DNA of 40,105 nt. Source: Hydrurus foetidus (taxonomy: Eukaryota). Of this stretch, positions 382 through 40,105 are shown in pieces; the stretch's first letter is position 1, and each line of letters opens with the position of its first letter. The notes beneath the pieces were generated by a model. It saw only the letters and a list, made by a program, of their open reading frames with translations. It made no database searches and had not been told where the DNA came from. The position numbers and the translations under genes were made by a program. Where the stretch lies: NCBI GenBank assembly GCA_900617105.1, contig UYFQ01000161.1, positions 1-40,105 on the forward strand, written 5' to 3'.

Positions 382-722
382 CTTAGTCACTCGGAATCTC
401 CCGATACTTGACTATTTTGTGGTTGCTTGAGTTTCATCTCAGCAATCCCATACCATTGTGCAGAGTTAACTCCGTTAACTTCTGCCCATTCTCGTTTCAA
501 GCTTGCTTGATTGACGTCCGTGGATAGCTTTGTCTTCCACGCCGTTCTTAGTCACTCGGGTTGAGATTTATCTCCCGATACTTGACTGTCTTGTGGTTGC
601 TTGAGTTTCATCTCAGCAATCCCAAATTTTTGTGCAGAGTTAACTCCGTTAACTTCTGCCCATCTCTCGCTTCAAGCTTTGCTTGATGACGTCCGTGGAT
701 AGCTTTGTCTTCCACGCCGTTC
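382..722 (+). repeat. Tandem duplication (~165 and ~176 bp units) in the Gypsy-1 5' leader
   Basis: Units 382-546 and 547-722 both start CTTAGTCACTCGG and end TCTTCCACGCCGTT. Confidence 0.9.
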
Positions 723-920
723 TCGTGGTTGGTCGAGCAAGTCTCCCAATCCCGGCTCATTTTGTACGGATTGATTCATTCATCCGTCCAGAACCACTTG
801 ACTTATTTGCTTCGCCTAATCGCCTGTTTGATTTTCATCCAAACGGCACGAGGCGAAGCCCTTGCAATTTTTTTTGGCGACTCTCGCCATTTAAATTGTC
901 AAGACATAAGTCATCTAACG

Positions 921-3900: not shown

Positions 3901-3960
3901 GGCCAACAACACCTCCATCAACGCAACCCACAGTGGTCTACCGCCCGCAGCCGCATATGA
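921..3960 (+). pseudogene. gag: Gypsy-1 gag with a long low-complexity R/D/N/Y-rich N-terminal region; frameshifted
   Basis: ATG at 921 (MPLSDDSSEI). Broken frames read RYDNDGRQYNDDRRND.... ORF 2314-3960 has the CCHC knuckle CNSCGHSDHLLKNC and resembles ORF 16544-17911. Confidence 0.75.
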
Positions 3961-4158
3961 TGGTACGTTACCTCATGTCACGGTGGTGGAGTCATTGGTA
4001 GTGGCGATACATGCTGCTAACACATGTAACCCTACCGATACACCACCACCTTTATGTATACTCAACTCTGATATACTCGTAACTGATACATTGGAGGTCT
4101 CAACCCCTTCCAATATATATCGGATAACACTAACAATGTTCTTCCCACATGTCTTCAC

Positions 4159-7574: not shown

Positions 7575-7990
7575 GTTCATATGTGTTGGCTAGATACACC
7601 ACACAACCGCCCACACGTTTACACACGTTGTGGCGGGGACCGTTTCAAGTGGTATCGATCCACAACTCTGATTATACGTTGTTAGATATAACTACGAAGA
7701 AACATAAACATCTTCATATTAGTAATCTTAAACAATTTGTTTTCAATCCGAAACATACGGATCCTGCTGATGTAGCACGCCGCGATTATATGGAATTCTT
7801 TATTGATTCCATTCTTCAGCATCAAGGCAATTCCAGACGCAAAACCCAAATGCGGTTTTTAGTCAAATGGACTGACTTTGATGACTCACACAATACGTGG
7901 GAGTCGTGGAAGAATCTTCGTCTTACAGACGCTCTTCACACATATTTACGCCTTCACGGCATGTCGAAAATAATTCCGACAGAAAAGTAA
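7575..7990 (+). CDS. Integrase C-terminus (GPF motif) plus chromodomain; joined to pol across a 1-bp frameshift at ~7570
   Basis: WRGPF; FFIDSILQH...FLVKWTDFDDSHNTWESWKNL. Adding one C to TTCCCGTAG restores FPVGSYVLARY. Confidence 0.9.
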
Positions 7991-8313
7991 GTTCCCAAGG
8001 AACGACCTACACATTATCTTTTGAAGATTCCTCCTCATTTTTACAACGTTAAGTTGCTTTTCAGGAGGTTTAGTCAGTAAAAATCTGACATAAATGTGTA
8101 GGGGAACACTTAGATACAACACATCTAGGCACTCTCGTTTCTCACTTCCCCAATCTCTCACATGTACAAATATCTGTATACTTCGTACGTATTTATTACT
8201 GCATTTTTGTATTTTATTTTTATTTTTTTTATTATTATCTTTTTCTGCATTTTGCTTTCTCAAGCTTGAGTCGTATTTGTTTTGTAACACATTGTAGCTA
8301 GAGACACACCAAT

Positions 8314-8368
8314 AGAGAGAGAGGGAGAGGGAGAGAGAGATGAGAAAACGAGAGATAAGTAGGGGTAG
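8314..8368 (+). promoter_or_regulatory. Gypsy-1 polypurine tract region
   Basis: GA-rich run ending AGGGGTAG directly before the TGTGG start of the 3' LTR. Confidence 0.85.
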
Positions 8369-8569
8369 TGTGGCTCCCTCAGGGTCTGCTACCCCATTCA
8401 GCCGATTAGATGCTGTTTCCACCTTAGTACCTTCGTGTTCACAGCCACGACTATCAGTCACTAGCTAGTTTGTGCTGCTTTGCAGAAGTTACTAGCGTAC
8501 CTTCTGTTGCAACCCTAACTAACAAGCTTCTTTTAGCCTTTAGACCTCCCTTCTCTTTTGCCTTCCACA
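8369..8569 (+). repeat. Gypsy-1 3' LTR
   Basis: TGTGG...CCACA termini; repeat of window positions 1-191. Confidence 0.9.
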
Positions 8570-17911: not shown

Positions 17912-19821
17912 GTCTAATCACTTATCGATGTAAATCTCACTGAAAGTCAATCGAGATCGATAACCCCTGCACAGAATTTTTTTTCAAGAGCATCGCCTCG
18001 TTCGCAAACGGGTACTGTAACGTCAGTAACAACGAATAGAGAGATATTATCCAACTCTTGAACTGAAAAGTTCTATGGCGTGAATATGGCGTGAAAGCCA
18101 AATTTAGAGTGGTAGAAAAGTTGGTATACCTTTAAGGTAGAAGACGTTGCTCAACGTCGACGAAAAGAAGTCTGTAGACTAACTTTGTGTCTGAATCTGT
18201 GATTCGATCGACCAGCGGAGCAAGTCTTAAATGACTTCTGGGAAGGATAAATCAACTTCGACCAAAAATGTCAAGTTTGGAAGAGCCCAATGCACGGGGA
18301 TTCCAAGAAAGCAGGTAATCTGACTTTCTCTAACTTAGACTAGCTTCTCTGAGCCAAACGGCTCGAATTTCGTTGATCAGAAGCTCAGAAGTCTTATCTA
18401 CAGGTTGGGACGAGTAGATGGAATGAGAAGTAGTAGAGAAAAGGGTGGACTAATAGCGCTATTGTAGTCCGGCAGCCTGTGCAAGATCAAGGGGCCATTT
18501 TTTAACCGAAAAGCTCCCCCACAGTATCGCCAAAGTTGGACAACGTATTGATCACATTACGAAGGATTTGATAAGGATATCAATTTGCTCGAGGACCAAA
18601 TAAACGATCGGTTTCCACTAATCTGACTATTGTGAGTGTCATGGTGCTATCAATTTTTTCAAATTTTATTCCTTCGATCACAAGATCAACCTAAAGTTGG
18701 ATTATCCAACTTCAACTTTACAGCAACCTTCATTACTCAACTGCTCCTGGTAAACACCGACGTAACATGATTTCCATCTCTAATAATGACGCATTAGAAA
18801 CATTTTCAAGCTTAACTGTTGACAGGTTTAGTTATCTGAAGCTCAATTTTTGGTATCTACTCATACCATATATCACCATACAGGAATCTAATGGTGAACC
18901 ACAGCAAAGCAAAATCTCGCTTCAAAAAGGACTACAACAATTCGATAGCTTTCTGAAGAACGTTACAGAAGCTGTGTTGGAAAATGAGCACCTTCCGAAC
19001 AGGAAGTTTAAAAATACTATAGCTGGAATGTCGAGGACTATACCGATCTTACCCAACTGTAAATATGACGTTTGTACCAAGTACCGGATAAATACTATAC
19101 AGCTGTGATTATTACAGTGTAACAATGGCAATATACGTGATACGAATTGGCATTGAGGGATTGACTTGGTGCACATTGCACACCAATAACAATCTACAAA
19201 ATGTGTTCACTTATTATATCCTATCATGCTAATTGTTGATTATACAAATAGCTATATACAGCTATAACTAGCACTTATCACTGTTATAGACCGACAAGGC
19301 CGTTCTTATGTCGTTGTGTGTGTGTATGCGCTGTGTACTATCCGGAGTGTTGTACGTTACAGTGCGCATGAAAAAGTGTTTCATGCGCATGACACAATTC
19401 AATCTTCAATGTTCTGTTTTCTTTCTTTAGAGTAGTGTAGATAGGTGGCGCTGTAAGCTTCGTGACTAGGTCGAACAGGGACGACAGTCACAAGTTAAAT
19501 TATCGACTGATTGGAAAACGATACTCTTTCATTTCACGGGATTTGCACACCACTCATACTGGAGACTTCGTACGTGAAGTGGTTCAGGCTACAATTCACG
19601 GGAACGGTAAAAAATGTTGCCTTAAAATTTAAGGCAAGCTTCACCACATACGGGAAAAGGCGCTATTTCATGGTCCTACTGTAAAATCCGTTCCATAACA
19701 TTTAAAATTTCGAATTGTTTTGATAATAATATCGTACTCGTCACTACTTCTTCAAAGGAATCTTTCAATATCTCACAGCTCGCAATGCCTCTGCAAATCA
19801 GAGTTTGAAAGAAGGGCCGAA

Positions 19822-21294
19822 ATGATCTACAGTGTCAGTGAAATCAACGAGAGATTTTTGCTCCTTCACAGGTGCATGATGAAGGCTCTTCAAAGGCGCA
19901 AGCAGAGAAAAGCTGCCAGTGCCAATCGCAAAGTTTATAAACAACGTGCAAAACCTGAAATTCCAAGAGACAAACATCCAAATTACTGGCAATCAGCTTG
20001 GGGACAACTTGTTCAGCGTCTTGCAAGCATTGTGGATGGGCCGTCTATTACGTCTAGGGACGGCAAACTTATCAGGAGGAGGTTCAGAGTACCATACCAA
20101 GTCTACTGTAAACTAGTTCAAATGTGTGTGGAGAAAAAGCTGTTTGGAGAGAATTCGTCAGTGGAAACTGACATAGCCAATAGGCTAATCTGCCCAGTGG
20201 AGATTAAAATGTTAGCGGTGCTTCGAATACTGGGACGCAACTGGAATTTCGATGATATAGCTGAAGCTACACTTATGGGAGAAACTACAGCTAGGAGAGC
20301 ATTCCACCTGTTTTGTGAAAACTTTGCCACATACTTTTATGACAAATACGTTTACAGACCAAAAGATCAGCAGTTGAAAAAAGTGTTAGAAGTATTCGGG
20401 AAAATGGGACTTCCTGGATGCATTGGATCGACTGACTGCGTACACCTAAAGTGGGATAGATGCCCTGTCTCGTTGAATCAGGTCTGTTCTGGCAAAGAAG
20501 GTTATCCGTCCTTGGCATATTCCTGTACTGTTGATCATCACAGTCGTATACTCGGATCGACGAGTAGCTTTTATGGTGCACGCAACGACATAACAATTGT
20601 CCGACATGATACTTACATCACAGATGTGAGAAACAAAAAAGTGCACGAAGAAGTTGAGTATGATATCTTCATTAATGGAGTTCTAATACGCGTCAAAGGA
20701 GTCTACTATCTGTGTGATGGGGGATATCATCGATGGAGTTGTATGATTAATCCTATCAAGCATACAATATCAAGGGGGGATAGGCTGTGGTCTGAATGGG
20801 TGGAGTCTACTAGGAAAGATGTCGAATATACGTTCGGCATATTGAAGAGTCGATGGCGATTTCTTCGGAACGGTATTGTGCTACAAAATCAATCGTCTAT
20901 TGATTTTGCGTTTTTCACCTGTTGCATTCTACATAACTAAATTTTAGAGTTTGATGGTTTAGACAACAGATGGGAGGTGAATGTGGATTGGGATCAAATC
21001 AATCCGCAGCCGGATAACTCAGATGAAGGTTTTGATCTTGAGGGCGACGTTCCTAGTATTCAAGAAAGGCGTGTACTTAATAGGGTTGACCAATGGACGA
21101 GTGCAGTCGAGATTTCTGATGAGGCTAATCAGGCATTGGGGAACGAAATTGAGGTTGAGATCGATTTTGACTTTGAAACAAAGAGGCGCAGTTTAATTAA
21201 TCATTTTTCGCATGCTTATGACGCGGGGCTAGTGCATTGGCCAAGATGTTTTAACGAACAAAAACAAGCTCATTATAACAAAGGAAGCATGTAA
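19822..21294 (+). pseudogene. Harbinger DDE transposase with an in-frame stop at 20938-20940
   Basis: GCIGSTDCVH, GKEG, GARND, YYLCDGGY, RKDVEYTFGILKSRW, CCILHN*ILEFDG continuing in frame to 21294. Confidence 0.92.
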
Positions 21295-21589
21295 TAGCCC
21301 TGAAATGAATCTTTATTTTATCATGGTTCCATTCCTCTCAAAGTTTGTTTGCAGTCATATGAGTATCTGTAATAAAAAAATAACACAAAATGTATATCAA
21401 ACGGTAGATTTAGAACAAATATAATATACGTTTAATGTAAGTTACCTAACAGAAATAACCATCCTCTTCTCCTAACGAATACTAAGTCATCCTAATTTCA
21501 CCTATCGAAGTTTAACGGGAGTACATGAAAAATATTGGAAATCTCAAAACCTGAAAAATGAATCACAGTGTACTATACTATACCGCTAT

Positions 21590-22657
21590 ACCTTCTGTGG
21601 TGACTCTAGACTATCCAAGCTCGTTTGATCGTAGCCCAGCTCCACGCCGAGAATTGTATCGGCAGCCATTGAAGTTTCTGTTCTAGCCATAACTGCTGAT
21701 GCCGGAGTCGAGCGGGCATCACGTTTAGTACTTTTAATCGCTACGTCGGAGATCTTCAGAGCGAAGGTAAATTAGCGAAGTTGTAGAGATTCATTTTGTG
21801 CTCGGTAATTTTCTCGGCAGGCAATTCTAACGACTGCGCCAATTCGAGCACAGTCTGCAGCCTTTTAATTTCATTTTTCCAAGCGACTTGATTTGTCGTC
21901 TCTTGCTGCGCCATCACGCCATCCCTCAAAAAAGAAATTTCTACATCATCAATCTCCACCGTTTTGACAGCTTCGTCTTTAATGACGGTGCTCCTCGAAC
22001 CGCAGAGTCGTCGCTGATCACGGCTACCGGTTTCCAGCATTTGTTCCCGAACTTCTGCGGCTGGTCTCTTCGAGAGCTGACTCAGACCAGATCCTGATAT
22101 TGGCGACCTGAATATTCCGAGACAGCCCCTTTCTCCAGCAGGTAGCCCAAGATATCTGAAACAAGGCCACTCTTTGAAAGTCCATTCTGCATCGAATTCC
22201 TTGTGTACTATATCTGCGGACCTATCTTTCTTTAATTTGATTCTCTCAGTTTCGTTATGAGCCCAAGCTGCTTTTCTGCAGACAAGCAGGGCGTTAGCAA
22301 GCTGATTCCCAGATGCGAAACTTGAAGGATCCTTCCAACTAGGGTTTAGAATATTATTGATGTAGTGGATTATAGCCTTCGCTTTTCTGATCATTTGTTC
22401 TCCGCTGTCACTGTCAATCTCCGCTAGAATAGTCGCTGGCTCAACATTTACTTTCAGAGAATTTGCAGACGCCGTCCTTAGCTCTGGTACTCGTTGCCTT
22501 AACCTTGATCAACTCTCAACAATGTCATTCCGCCGTTGACAACAATGTCATTCCACGACAAAGATAAAACAAGGCAGTATGCCTCAGCGCAATGCTTCGT
22601 AGCCGTCCCCTTACGCTTCACGACTGTTGTCGTCGCAGATGAACTCGCTTCAGCCAT
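21590..22657 (-). pseudogene. Probable Harbinger second (accessory) ORF, disrupted
   Basis: ORF pieces 22499-22657 and 21756-22394 lie inside the TIRs, convergent on the transposase; no domain recognised; 3' end approximate. Confidence 0.55.
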
Positions 22658-22960: not shown

Positions 22961-23239
22961 TGTTGGGATATCCGGATTAGACTAGGATCTTGTACCCTGT
23001 GTGATGTATGATTGTTTTCATGCACGGGTGTACGTACATTCAGCGATAACATTGACCGCAACCCTCGCACTCATGTTATTCTACCTAGATGTAATCGACA
23101 GCACGTCACTGTCGTTTAATCCAACTTACCGAATAGAACGTCTTCTTCTCTTTTGAGCGAGCGTTGCTAGCAGTCGGAAGTGCAGGGATAGTTTGGGAAC
23201 TCGGAAGAAATTCCGTGTAAATCGCCCAGATTTCCAACA
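22961..23239 (+). repeat. Copia-B 5' LTR (279 bp)
   Basis: Matches 28717-28844 plus 36612-36762 with about 4 substitutions. Confidence 0.96.
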
Positions 23240-23250
23240 TAAACGACAGT
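23240..23250 (+). promoter_or_regulatory. Non-tRNA PBS (TAAACGACAGT) complementary to LTR 23108-23118
   Basis: Exact 11-bp inverted match; no TGG start. Confidence 0.8.
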
Positions 23251-23294: not shown

Positions 23295-24476
23295 ATGAGA
23301 GGACGAGGCGATGGAAGATTCCAGTCCCGTGGCGGGGGCAGGGGTCGATATGGTAGAGGGCAAGGAGAGCCTCATAAACCCATATCTAAAGGTAGGAAGC
23401 CCGAGGTAGGTGCTTACCTGGATTTGCCGCGAGGACAAGCGGCAGATCCAGAATCTGTGTTGAAATGGCTCGAATGTTTTCGAGTATATATGTACAGTAC
23501 TTATGAATCTACTGTAAAAGAAATAATAGGTATAGACGGGATCCTCTACGACTACGTAGAGCAGGTGGAACCTGCGGACCCGCCTGAAGGAGCAGGACTG
23601 GTCGCCATAGAGCGATGGAAAACTGCACGTAAGAAATATGAAGCTGCATCTGAATTGCTTATAAAAGACTGCGCGAAATTGTATGGTGTACTACTAGGTC
23701 AAATGTCAGAGGCGTCGCAGACGCGGGTGAACGAGATGCCCGCGGGAAAGAGAGCGATGGAGGAATGCGATCCCCTAGGTCTGTTGACATGTGTGGTGGC
23801 AACACACATGAACAACAAAAGGTATGGAGAAACATACAACATCATTACAGCAGTTAGAAACTTTTATAATAACAAAATGACTCAACACGAAGACCTAGCA
23901 GCTTACTATAGTAGGTGCAGGACTTTGCTATTCGTCAAGAGCGAAGCCTACAGGTTGGCAGACGAAGACGCACCAGAACACACAGATGAGTTCCATGCTG
24001 TCTTATTTATAACTGCACTGAATTCAAACTATTCAGACTATATTAATACGTTTAAAAATAAGGTTCGGCCATGGCCGCAGACCATGGCTGATGCCAACCA
24101 GGACGCGGCCAACTTCCTCATGGGAAGGCCCGTCCACGGAGGAGCTCCCCCGAACTCGGAGAAGCGAAACGTTTTCGCGGCCAGTCGGGGTGGGAGAGCG
24201 GGTTCCGGTGGGAGAGGCGGCAGAGGCCGCGGAGGCAATCAAGGAGCTGAGAAGGGAGGGTTCGACACCCCCGGCAGCGAGAGTACGGCGAGGGCAGGCA
24301 CTCCCTATAGGGATAGGGAGGCCACCCCGCAGAGAGAGAGAGGTGGTGCCGTACAGGAGTACGGTACCCGTTACGGAGCGTGTAACAACTGCGGGGAGGA
24401 GGGCCACTACGCGTACGAGTGTAAGAAGCCGCCGAGGAAGAACGCACCTGCGCGTCACACTTCCTCGGAAAAGTAA
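23295..24476 (+). CDS. gag: Copia-B gag with RGG-rich segments and a CCHC knuckle
   Basis: ATG 44 nt after the PBS; CNNCGEEGHYAYEC; also open in the second copy. Confidence 0.92.
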   Translation: MRGRGDGRFQSRGGGRGRYGRGQGEPHKPISKGRKPEVGAYLDLPRGQAADPESVLKWLECFRVYMYSTYESTVKEIIGIDGILYDYVEQVEPADPPEGAGLVAIERWKTARKKYEAASELLIKDCAKLYGVLLGQMSEASQTRVNEMPAGKRAMEECDPLGLLTCVVATHMNNKRYGETYNIITAVRNFYNNKMTQHEDLAAYYSRCRTLLFVKSEAYRLADEDAPEHTDEFHAVLFITALNSNYSDYINTFKNKVRPWPQTMADANQDAANFLMGRPVHGGAPPNSEKRNVFAASRGGRAGSGGRGGRGRGGNQGAEKGGFDTPGSESTARAGTPYRDREATPQRERGGAVQEYGTRYGACNNCGEEGHYAYECKKPPRKNAPARHTSSEK

Positions 24477-27400
24477 GTCCCTTATATGTTTTTTTACCTG
24501 ATTCACTAGCTAAGGATGTAAATGTTCCGTGTGGGGAAACCGGACTGCATGACGTATTTGCAACGTCGACCGGTTACCCTGCGTTTGTGCCATTGTTAGA
24601 TAAAGCATGCAGCTTGGAGAATTTTTGTCCACTGAACAGTAAAAATTGTGGGGGTGACCCTGTGATTTTTAGTGCGAATGTATATACACACAGTTCCACA
24701 TTCACAGACAGACAAGTGTTGTTAGATACATGTGCAGCAGAGTCAGTGTTTTGTAGTGGAGATTTATTTTATAGTATTATGCCGTCCGCTACCCCGATGA
24801 TTATTAATGGAGTGAACCCTCAGGGGGAACCCTTGATAATCACGGAGTGTGGCGAGACGGACTTCGGAACAGTTTACTACGATAGCAATTGTATAGCGAA
24901 TATATTATCCTTCGGTAACATAGTCAGCGTGAGCGAGTCAGTTAGCTATGACAGTGACCAGGATTGTTACAAAGTTAGGATGATTAAGTCAGGACCTGTA
25001 TATAGATTTGTCCATGATCAGTCTACGAACATATATCTATGCGACTTAGACAGAAATGTCAGTTACAAGAATGTATCGTTCGATAAATCGATCATGGTCA
25101 TGACAGTTAAGGATAAGAAGAAACTGTATACAGCTAGACAAGTTAAGTCAGCAGAGTTAGCTAGAGAGTATCAGAGAAAGTTAGGTTACGCCAGCCCAGG
25201 ACAGTTAATTAAATTAATAGGTCAGGGGAAATTAGATAAGAGTGACATAACAGCGCAAGATGTAGTTAGAGCATTAGATATTTTTGGACCAGATTTGGGT
25301 TCCCTTAAGGGGAAAACAACTAGTCACAAAACTGAGTTAGAAGAAGAGATGCCAGTTGTAGGTAGGCAGTTCCTAAACCAGGTTATGTACATAGATTTGA
25401 TGTTTGTGAACTCGATACCCTATCTAGTCACAGTTACAAATCCCTTGGAACATGTGATGATATGTAAACTCTCACGTACAAATAAGTCTTCCTTGTTGAT
25501 GAACATAGAGAGCAACATACATCACATTACTAAGTATGGATTTAAGATAACCATGATAAGAATAGACGGAGAGTCGGCAGTTAATACTTTAAGTTTTGAG
25601 AGTAAGCTAGCCGCACTAGGTATTATATTAGACAGTACTGGAGCAGGAGAAGCAGTAGCTGTAGTTGAGAGGAAGATTAGAGTGATCAAGGAACGTGTTC
25701 GTGCCATCATCAACACGGTACCTTTTTCACTGAGTGAGCTACTAGAAAGTTGGTTACTTAGATATGTTGTGAACAGATTAAATTTAGTACCAACTAGAAA
25801 CAGTGTAGCTTACGTCAGCCCCAGAGAGAAATTATACGGTAGAAAGATTAACGTAGATAAGGAGTTGAAACACGGTTTCGGTGATTACGTACAAGTACAT
25901 ACCGATTCCGTGGATAACTCAACTAAACCCAGATCACAGGCAGCAATAGCATTAGTTAGTGCAGGCAACCTAGAAGGTTCATGGTATTATCTGCTGTTAG
26001 CTAACTTAAAAGTAGTGAAGAGGACAAAGGCTACTAGCTTACCAATGACAGATGATGTGATCAGTTACCTCGATAAGTTAGCATCTGAGAGGAAATTAAA
26101 TATGTCAGTGAATGTCAAGCAACCTATTTTCGAACAGAGTAATCAAATCCTCGAAGACGATGGAAATGATTACTCCAACGATGAATTTGAGTTGCAGACA
26201 CCTGACATGATAACACCGTATAGTTATCCCACAGAAGACGAATTTGTGCATCATGAGATAGCAAATAATTTTGACTCATACGATGGCAATTCTGATGTAG
26301 CTTACGAATCAGAGTTCGAACAATTAACAGAATACATACCAAATGATATATACGTTAATGAAGGAGAGGATGTAGTGTATGACGATACACCAACTGACCC
26401 CGATGCATTAATGAATGATATATTTGGTGTAGACAGTGATGATGAGGTAGATACCCCCACCACAGAAAATAGCAAGTCAGAGGAAATTCTAGATAAACAA
26501 CCCAGACGTAGTGCTAGAAACCATCAGCCAGGTAGATGGAACAAGAGATTAGTAGGTTTAAGTATACCTAGCTACAAAGATTCAGTTATGTGTAAGTACA
26601 TGATGAACATGACCGTAACAGAGGGAGTACAGAAATTAGGCGAAATAGCCGTAGATTCCATTAAAAAGAGTTACAACAGATGTGTGATAAGAATGTGTGG
26701 GAGGCAGTTCACCTCAACAGTCTTAGTTACGATCAGAGGAAAAGTATCATAACCAGCAGTATGTTTTAAAAGATAAGTATACAGCAGATGGTAAATTTGA
26801 TAAGCTAAAATCTAGACTTGTAGCAGGAGGGCATTTACAAGATAGAAATATATATGATAACGGTTCATCACCAACTGTTAGCACCACTAGCGTATTTATT
26901 GTTGCTGCAATTGCTGCTAGTGAAAATCGAGCGGTCGCTACGATCGATTTTCCTGGTGCATTCCTCAACAGTGATATGCCACTAGACGGTGACCATGCAG
27001 TGCTGATGAGACTGAATAAATATTTGACTAACATATTAGTTAGCATTGACAAGTCTTATCAGAAGTATGTAAATGAGAAAGGAACAGTAGTAGTTAAACT
27101 TAAGAAAGCATTATATGGATGCGTAGAGTCAGCTAAGTTATGGTATGATAAAATATCATCAGATTTAACACAGCTAGGCTATAAGGTAAATCCATCAGAC
27201 ATATGTGTATTCAATAGGACTGAGCTAGATTCCACTCAGACTACTTTAGTTATCCATGTTGACGATATGATGATCAGCAGTAGGGATGAGAAGCGTATAG
27301 ATAGTATAATTTCAGAGATAGAAAAACTATACCCAGGCTTGACTAAGAGTAGAGGTAGAGTGTTGAATTATATAGGTATGACTTTTAACTTTGAGCAGTT

Positions 27401-28205
27401 AGGCAGAGTTGTCATATCCATGGAAGGTTTCATAAAAGACTTGTTAGACGATTGCATAGAGATTGTGGGGGTGTCTAGAACACCTGCCGACGATAATCTA
27501 TTTAAGATCGATCTTAACAGTCCTTTATTGAAAGATAAAGAACGTGAGAGATTCCACTCACTAACAGCTAAGTTGTTATATTTAAGTAAGAGAACCAGAC
27601 CAGACATACTGACATGTATAGCATATCTAACTAAAAGAGTCCTAGAACCTAGAACCGACGACTGGAATAAGTTAGCGCATACTATACGGTATATCAGAGA
27701 GACTAGAGCTACGCCGCTGACCCTAGAGGTAGATACTCCGGTTAAGGTTATAGCCTATATAGATGCATCATACGCTGTACATGCAGATAAGAAGAGTCAC
27801 ACTGGCTGTATTATAACACTAGGTAAGGGAGCAATATATGGTAAGAGTTCCACTCAGAAATTAAATACTACGTCTAGCACAGAGGCAGAACTAGTAGCTA
27901 TGACTGAAGCAGGTAATCAGGTTTTATGGACTAGGAATTTCCTTATCCATCAAGAGTATGAGGTAGGTCCAGCTTTAATTTACCAAGATAACCTATCCAC
28001 AATTCAGTTAGTTAAGAACGGTAGGTCCAACAGTGAAAGAACTAGACACATAGACATCAAGTTTTTCTTCCTGCATGACCGAATTAAATCAGACCATATT
28101 ATTGTAACCTACAAGAGTACTAAAGAAATGATTGCAGATTTGCTGACCAAGCCACTGCAGGGGAAGCTATTCCAAGAGCTACGTGACCAAGTGCTCAATG
28201 TATAA
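24425..28205 (+). CDS. pol: Copia-B pol (PR, IN, RT, RH) in the -1 frame relative to gag, with two frameshifts at ~26665 and ~26767
   Basis: LLDTCA; IDLMFV, DGE, ERKIR; KSRLVAGG, DFPGAFL, KALYG, HVDD; DASYA, SSTEAE, QDN, ADLLTK. Confidence 0.93.
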
Positions 28206-28716: not shown

Positions 28717-28844
28717 TGTTGAGATATCCGGATTAGACTAGGATCTTGTACCCTGTGTGATGTATGATTGTTTTCATGCACGGGTGTACGCACATTCAGC
28801 GATAACATTGACCGCAACCCTCGCACTCATGTTATGCTACCTAG
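28717..28844 (+). repeat. Copia-B 3' LTR, left part
   Basis: Matches 22961-23088 and breaks after CCTAG. Confidence 0.95.
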
Positions 28845-29122
28845 TGTCTGAAATCCACGGTTCAGGTAGCTGCGAAGCGTACGGGAACGTTCTGAGTCTC
28901 GTAAAATAACTAGGTGATAGTCAAGTACTTGTTATTAAAACTTGTGCGCGGCGTCCCTGTTCACCGTACACGAAGCTTAGTGTTCGCAACACTAACTAAC
29001 TTATATATATACGCATATCGAATCGCACATTCAAAGTGTAGTGCGTTACTTTCAGGCCTGAAAGTAACGTACGTAAGTACACCTCTCTACTAACACCAGT
29101 CCTACACACGTAATATCCAACA
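28845..29122 (-). repeat. Copia-C 3' LTR
   Basis: Direct repeat of 36329-36606. Confidence 0.96.
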
Positions 29123-29223
29123 CACCCCTAGGACTTGCGTTGTTTCACACATCTCATTCAAACAGTATATAGCACACATCATCTGTATATTCACGCATTG
29201 TAAGGTGTAAGTAATATATCGCA

Positions 29224-31588
29224 TTACTTCCATCCCGTCAGACACTCTCTCTCATATATGAACTGCGACCCTTGTAACGGCTTAGTCAGTACGTTCGCGT
29301 ACATCTCTTTAGTTCCCTTGTGCACCACGGTCGCCTCCTTCTTCTCCACCCGCTCTCGCAACCAGAAATATCTGATGGAGATATGCCGAGTTCTCTCAGC
29401 TACAGATCTTCCCCTCTCCATGAGAGCCATACAGGACGTGTTGTCCTGGTATACCGTAATTGGCGCTACCCTGTGCCCTTGCGCCAGCAGGAAGTTCCGG
29501 ATGTACAACCCTTGATTCGCCGAGTCCGATAGAGCGATCAGCTCCGCTTCCGTGCTCGATTTGGTCACAATGCTCTGCTTGCACGATTTACAGTGGATAG
29601 CTCCAACCTCTCCTATCACGACATAGCTCCCTGTGTGTGACTTGCCGTCCCCGTGCACCCCGTATGCGGCATCCACGTACAGCCGTACGCACACCCCCAA
29701 TTTCCCCGGTCTCAGGATAACCCCTCTCTCCCTAGTGTACGCGATGTATTGCACCATCCGCTTCAACTTCTCTTCGTCGTCAACGGTACACTTTGTCACC
29801 CGAGTCGCAAGGAACGCAACAGCGGTAAGGCACTCCGGTCTCGCACGCTTCGCCAGATATGTGAGTTTGGCCACCACACTATGGAACCATGATCTTTGCG
29901 TTTCCGACACCAGTACCGCACCATCTCTGGTGTCGAACAGTCCACTGGTGGCAGGGCTTCTAGAGTGTCCAACGATCCCGCTGTACGCTATGACGTCCTC
30001 GACGTATCCCTGCATAGTCATTTTAACTTGTCCTCGAACGGATATATCAAATACCATACCAAGATAATTCAGCACGGGTCCGTCCGCAGACGTTATTTCC
30101 CCATACCTTTTCTTCATGAATCCCTTTAGGCCCATAATCATTTCCTCGCTTTCGCTTGTGATGATGAGGTCGTCGACGTGCACGGCCACTGTGCATTGCA
30201 CTCCATTCGGGTCCCTCTTATTGTAAACACATATCTCATATTCGTTTCTCTTAAAACCGGCGTCCGTCAGTGATGCAGATAGGTTATTATACCACAGTGC
30301 TGCAGACTCAACACACCCGTACAGTGCTTTCTCGAGCCGTACCACCGTACATCCTCTGTCGTCCGTTTACGAGCCGTACGTTCCATCTAGCTCAGCCAGC
30401 ATGGCTGACATTGTCGGGTCTAGTCGCATATACACAATTATTTTTCCCATCGTTGCATTTAGGAATGCACCCCCGATGTCCAGCACGCTGCCTTTCCTAT
30501 TCTCATGCGCCGCTACCGCGAACACTGTCATGACCGCACTAGTCGACACTGTAGGCGAGGATATGTCATCGTATAAATCCTTGTCCTGCTGGTTGCCTCC
30601 AGCCACCAGTCTAGCTTTGAGCTTCTCAAACTTCCCAGTGGGGAGGTACTTCTCCTTAAGGAACATCTGTGATCGGATGATACCCCTCTTCTCTGTTACA
30701 CTCAGCGACGACACGTCTACCGGGGTCCATACTCTTTTGTCGAGCATCTGCTTCAATTCCTTCTTTATCACCCTCTTAGCTTCGTCACCCCTACTCTTGA
30801 GTGCTTCTTTCACCGAGATATTCATCACACGTTCTTCGTACACGCCTCCGCTCTGGTACGTACGATCAGCGTACAGCGCCACGTCGTGATCACCGCCGTA
30901 TGTTCTCGAGAGATTTGTTCCAGCTCCCACGTCGAATCCCGTCGGCACGGCCGTGTACATAGGTGTTTGTGCATTCCCTGGTGGGGTAACCGGCACCGCC
31001 GCGTCAGGATGATGATACGATTCAGGTGCAGCCGGCCCGAACTCCTGGAGCTCCCCGACATCCAAGTCTTCCATATTGAATTCTGCACCCTGCACGATCG
31101 GCACATCGTAGTCTTCAGGGTATCCTATGATGTTGTTCACCATCGCTGGGTCGAATTGGTACTCCTCTCTCTCGCCCTCGTCCAGATCCAGCTGGGTGTA
31201 GGGGTTGGCCGTGACATCCGGGTCCAGGTTAGCCGCAGGATCTTGGGTCGGCCGTATGTACGTGGGTTCTTCAGTTCGTCGCAACCCTCCTTCACTGATA
31301 CTTTGATTATCTTACCAGTACTGATCGACATCATCTTCACTGATCCTGTTCTGTTCCCCGTTGGCAGCATGACGATACAGTCTTCCGTCCTCGATTCCAT
31401 AGTGTTATTGGTATTCGGCACGGTGCATTGGGCATATTCCCCGAAGTCCATCTTCCCGTCCGTCTATCTACCAGAGAACATCACTCGCGGACTCTCCCCT
31501 GAGCCGCTGACCGACGAGACTTGGTAGTTCAACCTAGAGACACAAAACAGTACTAACATTGCCACGCCCAGGTATGTTAGAGTGAATG
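29224..31588 (-). pseudogene. pol: Copia-C integrase C-terminus, RT and RNase H; disrupted
   Basis: KARLVAGG, DIGGAFL, KALYG, HVDD, DAAYG, SSTEAE, QDN; in-frame stop at 30367-69 and a frameshift near 31290. Confidence 0.92.
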
Positions 31589-31701
31589 CCAGTGGGGGGC
31601 TAAACTGATACCGGGGCAAAACTGATACCGCTCTGTACTATACTCCGCACAATCAACTGACATACCAACCCTCCGTATATCACAATTCACATCGCGGTGA
31701 A

Positions 31702-33465
31702 ATGTCAACTTCTCCGCCATCGAATCCCGAGAGGCTCCCTAGTCCTTGGGGGAGACGGACACCAAAATTAAAATCGAATTCAATTTCGACAGCTGAGAAA
31801 GTTTGGCTTATTCATGAGATCTTCTATCATGGAGTATCTTCACGAGAACTCTCTGGACGCTATGGCATTTCCAGGAAAATATTGAATCTTTGGGTTAACA
31901 GATTCTCAAAGAATGGAAAGGTGCACGATGCTGGCAGACCAAAATTATTTGATTCTCCCGCGAAAGCAGAACTGAGATCGTCTGTTTCGGGCAATATTCA
32001 CAACACAGTAAAATCAGAGTTCGTTCGCAATTTACAGTCAGAGCACGTGAAAGCAGTCGTCAAAACAAAAGCTGTTGCTGGATCATCGGTCAAGCCTATC
32101 TCACGGAGGTCAATAGCACGTTACATTGATGCCATCGGTCTCAAAGTCGGTAATGCGGAGCAGACCACCGACGCAAGAGCTCTCGCTACTTCGGATAAGC
32201 TCAATGCTGTTACCGTCGCTGTGGCGCACTTCTTGATGATGCCTTTGACAGTTCCTGATCTAGCGATCAATGCCGATGGGACTTCATATCAAACTTCGGG
32301 TGGCCTAACAGACAAGGTTCAGGTTCTCTATGACCCACTAGAGAGGGTTGAGAAGAAAGGACCGTTGAAAGTCATGGCAGTGAAAGGGTCTACCTTGACA
32401 GCATTTTTCATCAAGTTCTATATGTGTATCACTGCTATGGGTGTCTCTGCTCCTCCTGTTTACATTATTGCCGACGACAACATGGTGGAGGGGACAATAG
32501 ACTATCATGAGGTACCCGGTCTGGGAATCGGGACTGATATACTGTCGACTGGTTGGATAGTATTTTCTAAAACTCGAAGCGTCAACCAGGAGTTCTATAG
32601 ATGGTGGTTCTCAACTGTCTTCATCAAGTTTGTCACTGACATAAGGATACTAAATCAAATACCTCTGACGACACCAGCTTATTTTACACTTGATGGGGAG
32701 GATGTTCAGATCAAGCCGTTGAGAACCACTGAGGTTGCCAACATGTGCTTAGAACACTATATCGTCATTGGGAAGTTGCCTGCCTCTACAACCTCAATCT
32801 ACCAGCCGTGCGATGTTGGGACATGTTTTATGGCATCCAAAACAAAAAAAGGGACTTAAAAATATCAAGGATATACTGATTTCCGAATCTACCGAGCGTC
32901 ACAAAAACTTCATCAAGCTGCATGAAACTTTCGTTGGGAAGAAAATGTCTGCGGCGCATGTGAAAGCAATAGCAGAGGGACTGCATGTAGTGAAACATAT
33001 AATTCAGTCAACTTTGAAATCAGACACAATTACCGATTCATTCAGTACGTGCGGCCAGTTCGACAGAAAGGGCGGGGGATGCGATGTTGAGAAAATTTTG
33101 GGTCAGTGCAAAACTGCTTTGAGATCACGAGAGTTTGGGAGCACATGCCATTCCTTTGCAACCAGATGAAGACCAATGGGGAGTTGTCTATGAAGGACAT
33201 GGAACGCTTAGATATGGACAACATGTCCAGGGCAAATGGTAGATGCATTGATGATCTCGTCCTCAACCGTCGAAGATTTGTATTCCTAACTAACTGCGCA
33301 TTTATCGCTAGTGAGGACGACAAGAAGCTGGCGAAAGAAGCACTCGAGACAGAGAAGGTTGCCAAAGCTGTCAAGCGCAAAGCAGATGCAGAGTTAAAGA
33401 AGCAGAACCCCAAGCCGAACAAAAGAGCAAAAAAGGCAGGAGTAGTAGCAGTAGAAGATATTTAA
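31702..33465 (+). CDS. pogo-like transposase with frameshifts at ~32848 and ~33120
   Basis: N-terminal HTH and GRPK linker; INADGT, TLDG, LPASTTSIYQPCDVG, ITDSFSTCG; basic C-terminus. Confidence 0.85.
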
Positions 33466-33522
33466 TCTATTTGTAAATAAACGGATAATTCAGAATCATT
33501 ATGAACAGTTTGAGCTTCATCT

Positions 33523-34028
33523 TCAGACAACAGCAGAGTGCGCGTCAGATGTTTTAAATACTCCAGGATGAAAGCAGGTAAGATAGCGCTTTAGTGATCT
33601 CCTCGAAATCTTAACAGGATCAACAACGTCAGTATTATCGTCAGCTGCATCAACTTTGCCCAATCTCAGGCGGGTTGCAAGGAATTCCTCTTTGATTGCC
33701 GAGGTAAGGTGATCGTCATTTTCGAACGTCATATCTACGATGGAAGTTTCAATTTTCTGTTGGCTTTCAGCATCAAGAACTCGCGGTCTGCCCGGCAGCA
33801 TTCTGAGATAGGATCTTTTACGCATCCTCTGAACAAGGATATTGATATACTTTCTTTGGATGTTGTATCTTTTTGCAATGTCCGCCGCGATATCTTTTTG
33901 CAATATCTTTTTTCTTTCTTCAAGACTCTACTTGTTATCCATTTTTTCTGTTGAAGCGTTGGCAAACCGCCCGAAAATTCAATCCAGTGGTTGTAGGCAT
34001 CTTCGTCCACTGGCACTGTTGCATCCAT
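33523..34028 (-). CDS. Stand-alone paralog of the transposase DNA-binding domain (~170 aa; 1-bp frameshift at ~33910)
   Basis: DIAKRYNIQRK, GRPRVLD and ISRRSLKRYL align with ELSGRYGISRK, GRPKLFD and ISRRSIARYI of ORF 31702. Confidence 0.78.
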
Positions 34029-34155
34029 GGTGTTCTGATCGACGCCGGCGATGTCCTAATTGATTGTTGTGAGGGTTGGTATGTCAGTTGATTGTGCGGA
34101 GTAAAGTACAGAGCGGTATCAGTTTTGCCCCGGTATCAGTTTAGCCCCCCACTGG

Positions 34156-36302
34156 AATGGTAGTTGATGAGCGATGTATGCTCGCAACCTTTCCTTTACC
34201 GTCTGTATCTTACGTTCGATTCTCGCCACATGACCCCCTGCCCCGGCGATATCGACTTCCATACCCAACATGTTGAGGTCCTGCTTAATCTTCCCCACTG
34301 CCCCCTCACCGTCACTCATTATCATTCTCGTAACAAAGTTTCTGGAGGCCAGGGTCGCAACGAGTCCGTCGATTCCCTTCTTTACGACGGCTGCCGACCT
34401 CGGACCCTATGCTGAGTCGAATGCCGACAGAGTCACAGCCATTGTTAGGTCCAACGGTGTGGCCAGTCCGATCAGAGACGGCACACCGTCTACGAACATC
34501 ACATCAACCGACAAGACCTGTTTCACTTGCACCACAGCAGCACCCACTGTAATGTCTGCACAGATCGAGACTCTCTTTTTGGTTTTGCTCTTCATCGTTG
34601 CTATATCCTTCCCATATATATCCTCAGCTACAGCGAAGTCTCTAGCTGTCACGTCAAAGTTGGTACCGCGAGTCGCGATGTCGATGGCGTTTCTCACCGA
34701 TGGGAATCCCATCTTAGCCAATAGCAGTCGTGCTCTGTCTGCCCCAGCGATCTCGCGCTTAGTATATCTCGTTAAGTTGTTCTCAACGGTTTCGATCATC
34801 GCATGATCGCTCGGCTCAGGGTAGGTCGTAGGCTCATCCTGCACCATCGTCTTCACATGACAACAGTGGAACCTCCCTTCACTTCCACTAACGTTCTTCC
34901 TACAGAACGAGTATACTCTCCGGCTCCCAGCCGGTTTGAGTATGAACCGGTCGTTCACCTTATCATAGCTCACGTCGTTGCCTCCGTCAACCATTACAGC
35001 ATACGACAAGATGTTTGCTGTGGCTTCTTTGCTGAAGTAGCATCTCCCTACATCTAGGAAGTCTCCTTTCTGGTCTATTGCAACTCCAGACGCTTTGGCT
35101 TGAACCCCGTTCAGCACAACTTTCGTCTCCGACTGTCTCACATTGCTCAGCAGCTCCCGATTGCAGAATACATTCACTGATGCCTGACTGTCCAGAAGCA
35201 CATCGTCCCTTGAGAAAAGGACCCTTTCCACGGTTGTCACGTAAGCTATGTCCTCATCTTCCAGATCTTCCTCGCTATCGTCGCTACCTGACGGTCCTGA
35301 TGTCAGAAACGCTTTCTCGCTTCCCTTCTTTTTCTTACAATCTCTGGCGTGGTGCCCTATCTTCCCGCACACGAAGCATTCCACGATGGATTTGCTTTTC
35401 TTCTTCGTGTCGGGTTTGCCCTTTCCGGCTGGCTTCAGATCGTCGGTCTTGCCGGCATGGTCTGTGTCTGTTACCAGAGCAGAGTGGGTATCGGTATCTG
35501 TACCGGGTGCCCGTGAGAACCCTGGGTCGTTTGTCACATAACCGGTTGCAATGCGCACAGCGGCGATGACCGTCGGCGGGTATGCGTTTGGATCCAGTCT
35601 GTTCGCTGCGTTGCGCATATCTCCCACCATGTTCCCATATCTTGCCTTGTCCAATTTGTACACGAAGTCCATTGCACGTTTGGACTCTGTGATTGCAGGG
35701 ACCCCAGCACCTCTGCAAGCGAGTACCTGCGCTTCAAATCCAATCATGAAATTAGCTAGTTGTTCTCTTTCACCTTGTTAGAGGACCTCATAGCGACACT
35801 CTTGCTCTTTCACGTTGAGCAGTTGCAGGTGGTCTCCTTCGCCGTTTATGTGGGTTAGATGGGTGCGTCTGATGAGATCCCACAGGATCACGCAGTCCTT
35901 GCTGATGTTTGCGGCCGCGTATTCGGCTTGTTCCTGCACCTTACACCGTGATGCGGGTGACATCTTCTGCCACATCAGAGACCAGATTTTGGCCTCGTCT
36001 TCTTTTGCTTGTATGACAGACTTCATACGGGTCGTAAAGACCGTCTCTTTAGTTTTGGTGATTGCCACGGCCTCCGGTTCCCCCTCCGCGGGTACCGGAT
36101 ACACCACTGTAAAATCCTCGTTGCGAGGCAGTGGTGGTACATATCTGATGTTCGTCAGCAGGAAATTGGCAGTGAGCCCATACACGGCGCCCACTGACGT
36201 GCTCATTTCGAGATTCCACGCTACGATGTTGTTGAATTTTCCTATGCGGAGCATGCATTCTGGTGTCGAATCCTTTGCTTCCGCTGCGCGTTTGGGCGGC
36301 AT
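34156..36302 (-). pseudogene. Copia-C gag-PR-IN, one reading frame with stops at 35778-80 and 34407-09
   Basis: The three ORF pieces are in the same frame; CFVCGKIGHHARDC, LLDSQAS, VDVMFV, SDGE, ERKIQ. Confidence 0.92.
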
Positions 36303-36317
36303 CTCTATGCTGTCCTT

Positions 36318-36328
36318 AAGTTTTAATA
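36318..36328 (-). promoter_or_regulatory. Copia-C non-tRNA PBS (TATTAAAACTT) complementary to its LTR at 36417-36427
   Basis: Exact 11-bp inverted match immediately after the 5' LTR. Confidence 0.78.
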
Positions 36329-36606
36329 TGTCAGAAATCCACGATTCAGGTAGCTGCGAAGCGTACGGGAACGTTCTGAGTCTCGTAAAATAACTAGGTG
36401 ATAGTCAAGTACTTGTTATTAAAACTTGTGCGCGGCGTCCCTGTTCACCGTACACGAAGCTTAGTGTTCGCAACACTAACTAACTTATATATATACGCAT
36501 ATCGAATCACACATTCAAAGTGTAGTGCGTTACTTTCAGGCCTGAAAGTAACGTACGTAAGTACACCTCTCTACTAACACCAGTCCTACACACGTAATAT
36601 CCAACA
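36329..36606 (-). repeat. Copia-C 5' LTR
   Basis: TGTTGG...CTGACA on the minus strand; repeat of 28845-29122. Confidence 0.96.
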
Positions 36607-36762
36607 TTTAGATGTAATCGACAGCACGTCACTGTCGTTTAATCCAACTTTCCGAATAGAACGTCTTCTTCTCTTTTGAGCGAGCGTTGCTAGCAGTCGG
36701 AAGTGCAGGGATAGTTTGGGAACTCGGAAGAAATTCCGTGTAAATCGCCCAGATTTCCAACA
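36607..36762 (+). repeat. Copia-B 3' LTR, right part (including the Copia-C TSD)
   Basis: Matches 23084-23239; followed by the TSD ATCTG. Confidence 0.95.
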
Positions 36763-37545
36763 ATCTGGACTCTGTATGTTGGAATTCTGGGCGAATTACA
36801 CGGAATTTCTTCCGAGTTCCCAAACGATCCCTGCACTTCCGACTGCTAGCAACGCTCGCTCAAAAGAGAAGAAGACGTTCTATTCGGTAAGTTGGATTAA
36901 ACGACAGTGACATGCTGTCGATTACATCTAGCTAGCATAACATGAGTGCGAGGGTTGCGGTCAATGTTATCGCTGAATGTACGTACACCCGTGCATGAAA
37001 AACAATCATACATCACACAGGGTACAAGATCCTAGTCTAATCCGGATATCCCAACACACCCCCATGATGGTTATTGTTTGAATAAGTGAATATGTTAATG
37101 AGCATATGCTTATATAGTATACTTATTGGTTATTGTTCATAATGTTTCACACAACACTCAGATAGGGAGCTTAGTGTTAGGGTATGGTAAACAGTAAATT
37201 TTCTTTAAAATATTTTTCACGGAATTTTTTTAAATATTGACAAGTTGCGTCGTGATATGGTGAAAAAGAAAACATGGGTGGTTGGATTAGTAAATGGGTA
37301 TTGCTCGAGAAAAACTATTTGTAAACCGTCAAAAAAGCGTCAGCTGGTGACCGGTCTCGAGTTCGATCCAACCGATGTTGGTGCCCTTAAATCCACTAAA
37401 ACGTCGACATTCGATGTCGCAAAAGCGGTGTATCGATGTCCCTCGCGGTCCTATCAAACAAATGTTGATTTAAAGCGAAATCAGATTTTTTATTTTTATT
37501 TTGTATTTTTATCTAGAAAAAGCGCTATAGGTGGGTAAGTCAAAA

Positions 37546-38246
37546 TCAATAAATATCTAATGCTCTGACTACAACTTGTGCTGTTATGTCGCTCTTATCT
37601 AATTTCCCCTGACCTATTAATTTAATTAACTGTCCTGGGCTGGCGTAACCTAACTTTCTCTGATACTCTCTAGCTAACTCTGCTGACTTAACTTGTCTAG
37701 CTGTATACAGTTTCTTCTTATCCTTAACTGTCATGACCATGATCGATTTATCGAACGATACATTCTTGTAACTGACATTTCTGTCTAAGTCGCATAGATA
37801 TATGTTCGTAGACTGATCATGGACAAATCTATATACAGGTCCTAACTTAATCATCCTAACTTTGTAACAATCCTGGTCACTGTCATAGCTAACTGACTCG
37901 CTCACGCTGACTATGTTACCGAAGGATAATATATTTGCTATACAATTTCTATCGTAGTAAACTGTTCCGAAGTCCGTCTCGCCACACTCTGTGATTATCA
38001 AAGGTTCCCCCTGAGGGTTCACTCCATTAATAATCATCGGGGTAGCGGACGGCGTGGTATATAAAATAAATCTCCACTACAAAATACTGACTCTGCTGCA
38101 CATGTATCTAACAACACTTGTCTATCTGTAAATGTGGAACTGTGTGTATATACATTCGCACTAAAAATCACAGGGTCACCCCCACAATTTTTACTGTTCA
38201 GTGGACAAAAATTCTCGAAGCTGCATGCTTTATCTAACAAAGGCAC
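37546..38246 (-). pseudogene. Copia-B2 protease and pre-integrase remnant
   Basis: Near-identical to 24587-25283; 1-bp frameshift at ~38058; ends at the deletion junction. Confidence 0.92.
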
Positions 38247-38356
38247 AAACGCAGGGTAACCGGTCGACGTTGCAAATACGTCATGCAGTCCGGTTTCCCC
38301 ACACGGAACATTTACATCCTTAGCTAGTGAATCAGGTAAAAAAACATATAAGGGAC

Positions 38357-39544
38357 TTACTTTTCCGAGGAAGTGTGACGCGCAGGTGCGTTCTTCCTCG
38401 GCGGCTTCTTACACTCGTACGCGTAGTGCCCCTCCTCCCCGCAGTTGTTGCAAGCTCCGTAACGGGTACCGTACTCCTGTACGGCACCAACTCTCTCTCT
38501 ATGCGGGGTGGCCTCCCTATCCCTATAGGGAGTGCCTGCCCTCGCCGTACTCTCGCTGCCGGGGGTATCGTACCCTCCCTTCTCAGCTCCGCTGTAGCTG
38601 TTTCCTCCGCGGCCTCTGCCGCCTCTGCCTCCGGAACCCGCTCTCCCACCCCGACTGGCCGCGAAAACGTTTCGCTTCTCCGAGTTCGGGGGAGCTCCTC
38701 CGTGGACGGGCCTTCCCATGAGGAAGTTGGCCGCGTCCTGGTTGGCCTCAGCCATGGTCTGCGGCCATGACCGAACCTTATTTTTAAACGTATTAATATA
38801 ATCTGAATAGTTTGAATTCAATCCAGTTATAAATAATACAGAATAGAACTCATCTGTGTGTTCTGGGGCTTCTTCGTCCGCCATCCTGTAGGCTTCGTTC
38901 TTCACGAACAGCAGCGTCCTACACCTACTATAATAAGCAGCTAGGTCCTCGTGTGCAGTCATTTTATTTGTATAGAAATTTCTAACTGCAGTTATAGTGT
39001 TAAATGTTTCTCCATACCTTTTGTTGCTCATGTGTGTTGCAATCACACATGTCAACAGACCTAGTGGATCACACTCCTCCATAGCTCTCTTCCCAGACGG
39101 CATCTCGTTGACCCTGGTCTGTGAAGCCTCTGACATTTGACCTAATAATACACCATACAATTTCGCGCAGTCTTTTGTAAGTAAATCATCAGCAGCATCA
39201 TATTTCTTACGTGCAGTTTTCCATCGTTCTATCGCGACAAGACCGGCTCCCTCCGGCGGGTCTTCAGGTTCCATCTGCTCCACGTAATCGTAGAGGATGC
39301 CGTCTATACCTATAATCTCTTTAATAGAAGATTCGTAAGTACTGTACATATATACTCTAAAACATTCGAGCCATTTCAACACGGCTTCCGGATCTGCCGC
39401 TTGGCCTCGTGGCAGATCCAGGTAAGCACCTACCTCGGGCTTCCTACCTTTAGGTATGGGTTTATGGGGCTCGCCTTGCCCCCTACCATATCGACCCCTG
39501 CCCCCGCCACGGGACTGGAATCTCCCATCGCCTCGTCCTCTCAT
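38357..39544 (-). CDS. gag: Copia-B2 gag, intact
   Basis: 395 aa, colinear with 23295-24476; CCHC knuckle intact. Confidence 0.93.
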   Translation of the reverse strand: MRGRGDGRFQSRGGGRGRYGRGQGEPHKPIPKGRKPEVGAYLDLPRGQAADPEAVLKWLECFRVYMYSTYESSIKEIIGIDGILYDYVEQMEPEDPPEGAGLVAIERWKTARKKYDAADDLLTKDCAKLYGVLLGQMSEASQTRVNEMPSGKRAMEECDPLGLLTCVIATHMSNKRYGETFNTITAVRNFYTNKMTAHEDLAAYYSRCRTLLFVKNEAYRMADEEAPEHTDEFYSVLFITGLNSNYSDYINTFKNKVRSWPQTMAEANQDAANFLMGRPVHGGAPPNSEKRNVFAASRGGRAGSGGRGGRGRGGNSYSGAEKGGYDTPGSESTARAGTPYRDREATPHRERVGAVQEYGTRYGACNNCGEEGHYAYECKKPPRKNAPARHTSSEK

Positions 39545-40105
39545 CCTTGCAAGATTTTTGCAATTTTCTAGCTAATCTATCTAAGGATGACTGTCGTTTA
39601 TGTTGGAATTCTGGGCGAATTACACGGAATTTCTTCCGAGTTCCCAAACGATCCCTGCACTTCCGACTTCTAGCAACGCTCGCTCAAAAGAGAAGAAGAC
39701 GTTCTATTCGGTAAGTTGGATTAAACGACAGTGACATGCTGTCGATTACATCTAGCTAGCATAACATGAGTGCGAGGGTTGCGGTCAATGTTATCGCTGA
39801 ATGTACGTACACCCGTGCATGAAAAACAATCATACATCACACAGGGTACAAGATCCTAGTCTAATCCGGATATCCCAACACTAGAGTGGTGAAGCAACCT
39901 GGAATTCTGGATCCAAGTTTTTTTTAAATCCGGATTATTTTTCATGATCGGATCCGTGGTGGAGCATGTGAATTCCGGAATTCCGGATCCATGGTACCCC
40001 CAAGAAACCAGTGGGTTCGACTTCTCCCTAGTGCACATATGGGTGAAGAATTCTGAATTATAATATCGACTCAAAATTGATCATGGACTAAAAGCTTTCG
40101 CCAAA

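Follow-up and report, generated by a model that had tools for sequence, protein, structure and literature searches.

The stretch of DNA analysed here (the window) comprises the 40,105 nt of contig UYFQ01000161.1 from Hydrurus foetidus (GCA_900617105.1) and consists of nested retrotransposons, with the element Copia-C located inside the 3' LTR of the element Copia-B. The features of both elements are given below; in C/A and TC/A, the slash stands before the A at which the transcript is predicted to start.

36329-36606, minus strand: Copia-C 5' LTR, 278 nt, TG...CA (direct repeat D2, 99% to 28845-29122)
28845-29122, minus strand: Copia-C 3' LTR, which holds an identical 11-nt site at 28943-28933
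36318-36328, minus strand: Copia-C PBS position, TATTAAAACTT, no spacer after the LTR, no TGG
36417-36427, minus strand: predicted self-primer of Copia-C, AAGTTTTAATA, exact reverse complement of the PBS (putative role)
36427-36428, minus strand: initiator-like C/A of Copia-C, predicted start at A 36427
36329-36416, minus strand: 88-nt loop of Copia-C, closed by the duplex in the RNA fold
34410-36302, minus strand: Copia-C gag-protease region with ATG at 36302, in-frame TAA at 35780-35778 and a CCHC zinc knuckle
29227-31311, minus strand: Copia-type RT and RNase H of Copia-C with one in-frame stop (RVT_2 matches; ORFs)
29123-29135, minus strand: Copia-C polypurine tract, adjoining the 3' LTR (from the sequence)
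31589-34155, plus strand: DNA transposon with long terminal inverted repeats, within the Copia-C integrase region (inverted repeat I10; flanks)
22961-23239, plus strand: Copia-B 5' LTR, predicted self-primer at 23108-23118 after TC/A
23240-23250, plus strand: Copia-B PBS position, TAAACGACAGT, matching 23108-23118 in its own LTR
28717-36762, plus strand: Copia-B 3' LTR, split by Copia-C into 28717-28844 and 36607-36762 (repeats D3, D4)
36777-39880, minus strand: second, internally deleted copy of Copia-B (repeats D1, I1-I9)

Organization of the elements

The hallmarks of Ty1/copia elements are present, namely a TG...CA LTR pair, a polypurine tract and a target duplication. The Copia RTs of the window match RVT_2 (Pfam, E-values of 3e-16 and 9e-9), and RT-RNase H, which is 42% identical between Copia-B and Copia-C, is located at the end of pol. 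No integrase domain was matched in Pfam, and the placement of the integrase before the RT is deduced from gene order. The two LTRs of Copia-C differ at 3 of 278 nt (98.9% identity). Its flanks CCTAG and TTTAG agree in three of five letters; despite the LTR identity, the two copies of this target duplication (28840-28844 and 36607-36611) are separated by two adjacent C-to-T changes. The U3 of both LTRs contains a near-perfect palindrome of 32 bp (36525-36556 and 29041-29072), a possible factor-binding site. With stops and the DNA transposon interrupting its coding region, the present Copia-C copy has probably lost its autonomy. The DNA transposon is separate from the priming system; it has terminal inverted repeats of about 85 bp, a flank duplication of 4-5 bp (AATG or GAATG) and an ORF (31609-32859) without Pfam match. 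To the eye, this 416-aa ORF resembles pogo; the target duplication of pogo elements is usually TA.

Copia-B is bordered exactly at TG...CA by a perfect 5-bp target duplication, ATCTG. Its gag (24425-26752) and pol (26727-28205) are in different frames and pol contains a further frame break, in contrast to the relatives, which have one ORF of about 1500-1640 aa; both decay and a programmed shift are possible. The insertion point of Copia-C (28844, equivalent to 23086-23088) falls in the core promoter region of the Copia-B 3' LTR, the predicted start being about 20 nt downstream of it. The deleted copy of Copia-B lies tail to tail with the full copy, with 14 nt between their ends (36763-36776), and has no matching target duplication. 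The window further contains a Gypsy element (1-8567) with long Asp/Asn/Arg-rich repeats in its gag region, and a PIF/Harbinger-like pair (19699-22508) with a DDE_Tnp_4/Plant_tran ORF on the plus strand and a second ORF on the minus strand. No tRNA genes were found in the 40 kb. An Rfam search gave one match at chance level (E 0.84), and a PDB search gave none.

Complementarity between the LTR and the PBS position

The initial annotation had reported an exact 11-bp match between the PBS position and the LTR of Copia-C, and this match is indeed present: the 11 nt right after the 5' LTR (36328-36318, minus strand) are, in reverse complement, identical to 36427-36417, and the complementarity ends at 11 nt on both sides. 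In Copia-B, the match of 23240-23250 to 23108-23118 likewise abuts the LTR with zero offset, and the PBS of the deleted copy (39600-39590) matches 39732-39722 as in the full copy. The LTRs of the two families share no alignable sequence, which agrees with the difference described earlier. Position and length had been called the same in both families; this is true for the 11 nt and for the PBS abutting the LTR, whereas the partner site starts 99 nt before the LTR end in Copia-C and 132 nt before it in Copia-B. TGG is absent within 20 nt of the LTR of both elements. The 5' LTR of the Gypsy element is followed neither by TGG nor by an own-LTR match, which does not exceed 5 nt over offsets 0-7.

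When the own LTR was shuffled 3000 times with its dinucleotides preserved, an 11-nt match was never reached, either for Copia-C or for Copia-B, and none of 1000 downstream positions reached 9 nt in either family. The whole 40 kb contain nine exact inverted repeats of at least 11 nt with arms 30-300 nt apart, three of which are the PBS positions of three Copia 5' LTRs.

Relatives of Copia-B and Copia-C

Protein searches revealed a large family in environmental collections, with 2090 and 1208 RT matches and 66 gag matches. Loci were taken from one metagenome scan (5 loci), one prokaryote-genome scan (32 loci) and follow-up sequences; the eukaryotic Copia loci in prokaryote genomes appear to be stray contigs. 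One bin filed as a bacterial genome (G001; L070-L076, L082-L121) contains 62 Copia RT matches from many clades and is apparently heavily contaminated with eukaryotic repeats. No relatives were found in viral contigs, and 12 motif-scan stretches in such contigs, which share the motif alone and have no protein similarity to the window, were rejected as chance. The 401 and 19 genomes near G003 gave nothing new. In a protein-cluster atlas, the Gag of a relative falls into unnamed clusters, one of which has a single Bacillariophyta record and can serve as a lead only.

For scoring, Copia-B and Copia-C were joined by twelve relative families in which an LTR, the sequence following it and the start of gag are present. 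Sequences of the same family (L003 and L004, equal to L002; L080, equal to L079; Copia-B2, equal to Copia-B) were left out, as were L016 and L018, in-clade loci without an LTR-PBS junction (L017, L019, L030, L070-L072, L077, L078, L102, L103, L107 and short fragments) and Copia-A, the 5' LTR of which lies beyond the window. The 14 elements have own-LTR matches of 9, 9, 10, 10, 11 (five elements), 12, 14, 15, 15 and 16 nt, most of the relatives being single-LTR collapsed contigs whose LTR ends were mostly fixed after the match scan had been viewed (the boundary was located before the match in L008 and L074 only). In L001, L008, L011, L032, L073 and L074, the LTR ends are consistent with a terminal repeat of 5-6 bp; four LTRs were also aligned at the DNA level, but the quality was too low for use. 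Each match length was reached by 0-13 of 3000 shuffles, and when the PBS was paired with the LTRs of other elements, 2 of 182 combinations reached at least 9 nt (L039 on L074 and L074 on L008).

Overall, 15 of 17 testable in-clade families have an own-LTR match of 9-16 nt. One of the remaining two is ambiguous: L028 has 4 nt at the best LTR end suggested by a terminal repeat, and 12 nt if the LTR is taken to end at a CA 41 nt further on. The other, L029, fails, with no exact own-LTR match of at least 8 nt; its sister L026 has a 10-nt match, which starts where the similarity between the two starts. In L082, one possible LTR end gives 3 nt and a second one, 67 nt further on, gives 14 nt; this family was counted as a match. 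A search for a second LTR copy was negative for both L082 and L028. In eleven Copia elements at a greater distance, of which nine are from one bin and some have approximate LTR ends, the match reaches just 4-6 nt over offsets 0-5. Several of these outgroup elements have putative TGG-type or half-tRNA-like primer sites. The proposal that the match is a clade-wide trait thus holds, with a single clade of self-matching families and none of the 11 outgroup elements above 6 nt, whereas the fixed length of 11 nt does not hold as a clade rule, being found in five of the 14 scored elements.

Covariation of the two arms

The PBS letters vary at nearly every position across the 14 elements, yet track the own LTR. 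Natural covariation had been proposed from Copia-B and Copia-C; with LTRs that cannot be aligned, these two are replicates, and true covariation is found between Copia-C and its closest relative, L039, instead. The Gag proteins of these two are 38% identical and share the N-terminus, and their 11-nt sites have a common anchor, TAACAAGT, at the 3' end. Six of the 11 positions differ between the sites, and each change is compensated in the PBS; both sites have A at position 1, which is unpaired in L039. The pattern seen in the primers of Copia-B and Copia-C, which start with A and end in TA, extends to the clade in part: the match begins with A in 9 of 14 elements and an unpaired A lies just before it in three more, but the TA end occurs in 7 of 14. 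In L079, the two predicted primer copies (118-133 and 5657-5672) differ by one A-to-G change, after which a G-U pair with the PBS would still form.

At position 10 of the Copia-C primer (36418), a variant makes up 38-60% of the depth in DNA contigs of all four runs. A matching PBS change at 36327 is not among the variants listed, this site being at the edge of the reported range. The computed stability of the duplex between the variant and the unchanged PBS decreases from -7.4 to -5.8 kcal/mol. Because it is accompanied by further changes and by loose ends in R-U5, the variant probably marks a subfamily. In run X13, a single contig covers both arms; of 150 letters, 11 differ, and no difference can be assigned to the arms.

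RT/RNase H tree

Mapping of the trait on an RT/RNase H tree, as suggested in the initial annotation, confined the self-matching rows to one clade. In this IQ-TREE phylogeny of 39 RT-RNase H rows, which is midpoint-rooted, has no named reference and contains several long branches, all 13 rows labelled self-matching sit in one clade of 25 rows with a support of 96/95 (UFBoot 96). The clade also includes L026, L028 and rows lacking a testable junction, and none of the 11 non-matching rows; identity of RT-RNase H within it goes down to 25-31%. L039, which has no RT, and L029, which was placed by its similarity to L026, are not rows of the tree. L107 comes from the same bin as L039 and is the sister of Copia-C (100/97), and we infer that L039 and L107 are one element.

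Predicted transcript start and RNA fold

At the far end of the match (position 0 or -1), C/A is found in 11 of 14 elements and TC/A in 8 of 14; it is absent from L073, L074 and L109. A naive binomial test gives 1e-8 for this enrichment, a value that is overstated, as the elements are kin and two positions were allowed. Because the C lies outside the duplex, the signal is independent of pairing. Similar sequences are YCAYTYY, the initiator of oomycetes, and the TCAHW motif of diatoms, and the stramenopile initiators described are of the YCA type (PMC3599244, PMC4686930). The start of the RNA is predicted at 36427 in Copia-C and at 23108 in Copia-B, with the far-end C/A as the one feature on which this prediction draws. 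The sequencing runs listed in a search for this DNA included no RNA run. Copia-C has a TATA-like run about 55-65 nt upstream; the usual distance between TATA and start is 30 nt.

When the Copia-C RNA is folded from 36427, the duplex closes the 88-nt loop, and the prediction places one hairpin in R and another, long one in U5 beside the PBS. The fold z-scores are -1.75 for Copia-C, which is not significant by itself, and -1.61 for Copia-B, and a U5 stem-loop is predicted in both. The AU-rich duplex of Copia-C is weak in isolation (-7.4 kcal/mol), and its mean pairing probability in the fold is 0.96. The same value is obtained from starts up to 73 nt upstream, and since the duplex is equally probable from these earlier starts, the fold is no argument for a primer rather than a structural stem.

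Proposed self-priming and alternative explanations

A standard TGG-type tRNA primer site is absent from the lineage of Copia-B and Copia-C, which, with a probability of about 0.8, uses Tf1-like self-priming. In Copia-C, Pol II would initiate at the C/A at 36427, and the first 11 nt of the RNA would fold back onto the PBS, thereby closing the 88-nt loop. The RNase H of the element would then cut after nucleotide 11, at 36417, and from the 3' end made by this cut, RT would synthesise DNA into U5. Because the PBS abuts the LTR, the cDNA would have its end flush with the CA of the LTR, which fits the position of the Copia-B target duplication at TG...CA. Finally, the primer would be copied into the PBS of the daughter element during plus-strand strong-stop synthesis, a step that would account for the joint change of both arms.

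The duplex could also be a structural stem of the 5' leader with a role in packaging, dimerisation or translation control, priming being achieved in another way. Such a stem would form wherever the transcript starts, it has a parallel in the fungal GalEa Copia elements, which have a conserved hairpin in place of the PBS (PMC5445492), and it could straddle the LTR end in L082 and L028, where this end is uncertain. However, one arm begins exactly at the first post-LTR base in Copia-B and Copia-C, which have two LTR copies, as well as in the six relatives whose LTR ends agree with a terminal repeat, and the other arm begins at the initiator-like C/A in most of the elements scored. The GalEa hairpin, moreover, is located wholly downstream of the LTR, and its authors report that they found no LTR complement (PMC5445492). 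No alternative primer site is evident in the elements studied here, and a purely structural role of the duplex is considered unlikely.

Priming by a tRNA half, as in Osser, Bianca and FunCo1, would make the LTR match secondary, for example as a shield of the PBS. With a 1-nt offset, the PBS of Copia-C shares 7 of 11 letters, compared by eye, with the tRNA-Lys PBS of FunCo1 (PMC5445492), and half-tRNA priming is described as confined to Copia (PMC6317226). A shared tRNA would fix the letters of the PBS, however, and therefore their variation across the 14 elements, following the own LTR in each, speaks against this mechanism, which is judged very improbable. A chance match of an AT-rich 11-mer, a motif of 91% AT in a window with six other inverted repeats of 11-18 nt, is ruled out for practical purposes by the shuffle and position controls for both families, as the initial annotation had expected, together with the recurrence of the match across the clade, including the GC-richer Copia-B and L034.

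Comparison with known systems

The 11-nt match of the PBS position to the own LTR in Copia-C resembles Tf1/sushi elements such as Tf1 and Tf2 of Schizosaccharomyces pombe. Tf1 is described as using no tRNA primer; the initial 11 bases of its RNA form a duplex with the PBS, and RNase H cleaves between bases 11 and 12 (PMC7175516). Tf1 uses 11 bases, whereas the match in the Copia clade has 9-16 nt and is known here from sequence alone. Tf1/sushi elements belong to Ty3/gypsy, whereas Copia-B and Copia-C are Ty1/copia elements with RVT_2 rather than RVT_1, and are thus not members of this group.

Within Ty1/copia, the plant TAR lineage (Houba, Osr-1) is similar. Self-priming was predicted in 89% of 203 TAR elements (PMC6317226 with supplement file 3), the criterion being a complementarity of 10 nt or more to the 5' LTR, located 0-5 nt from the LTR end (PMC6317226), and such complementarity is found in both Copia-B and Copia-C. 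The best 120 matches of each RT search and the 66 gag matches all come from ENA, JGI and Logan and none from NCBI or UniRef, and the exclusively environmental origin of the matches among those listed argues against a plant lineage. From these data, and with a tree that contains no TAR reference, we infer an origin separate from plant TAR. The fungal GalEa elements are also Copia elements without a tRNA PBS and have a covarying inverted repeat at the PBS position. Their Conserved Hairpin Site consists of a palindromic first arm of 9 nt and a partner 12-41 nt downstream (PMC5445492), whereas the partner arm of Copia-C is located 99 nt upstream, inside the LTR at the predicted start, and is not of the GalEa type. 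The diatom CoDi Copia families (Maumus et al. 2009) are possible relatives, the tree being without a CoDi reference; in the accessible text of PMC2806351, priming is not discussed, and both "tRNA" and "priming" have word counts of 0.

It was suggested that self-priming may be ancestral (PMC3601003). A literature search that covered few subscription journals found no description of self-priming in protist Copia elements. To our knowledge, self-priming has been proven only for the gypsy-type Tf1, and for Copia it has just been predicted, in one plant lineage. The chances are about even that tRNA-free self-priming arose, independently of both Tf1 and plant TAR, in a deep and large clade of Copia elements from aquatic protists. 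The primer of 9-16 nt would then be free to change, its length being set by the distance to the initiator.

Biological implications

Annotation tools that demand a tRNA PBS will undercount elements of this kind. If the self-priming model is true, the RNase H of Copia elements would cut an RNA:RNA duplex solely on the basis of structure, and in each cycle the element's own primer would serve to rewrite the PBS. The diverse Copia clade with its natural compensatory changes provides test cases for duplex-RNA cutting by Copia RNase H, and it bears on how often tRNA-free priming arose and on whether such priming lets elements escape tRNA-fragment silencing.
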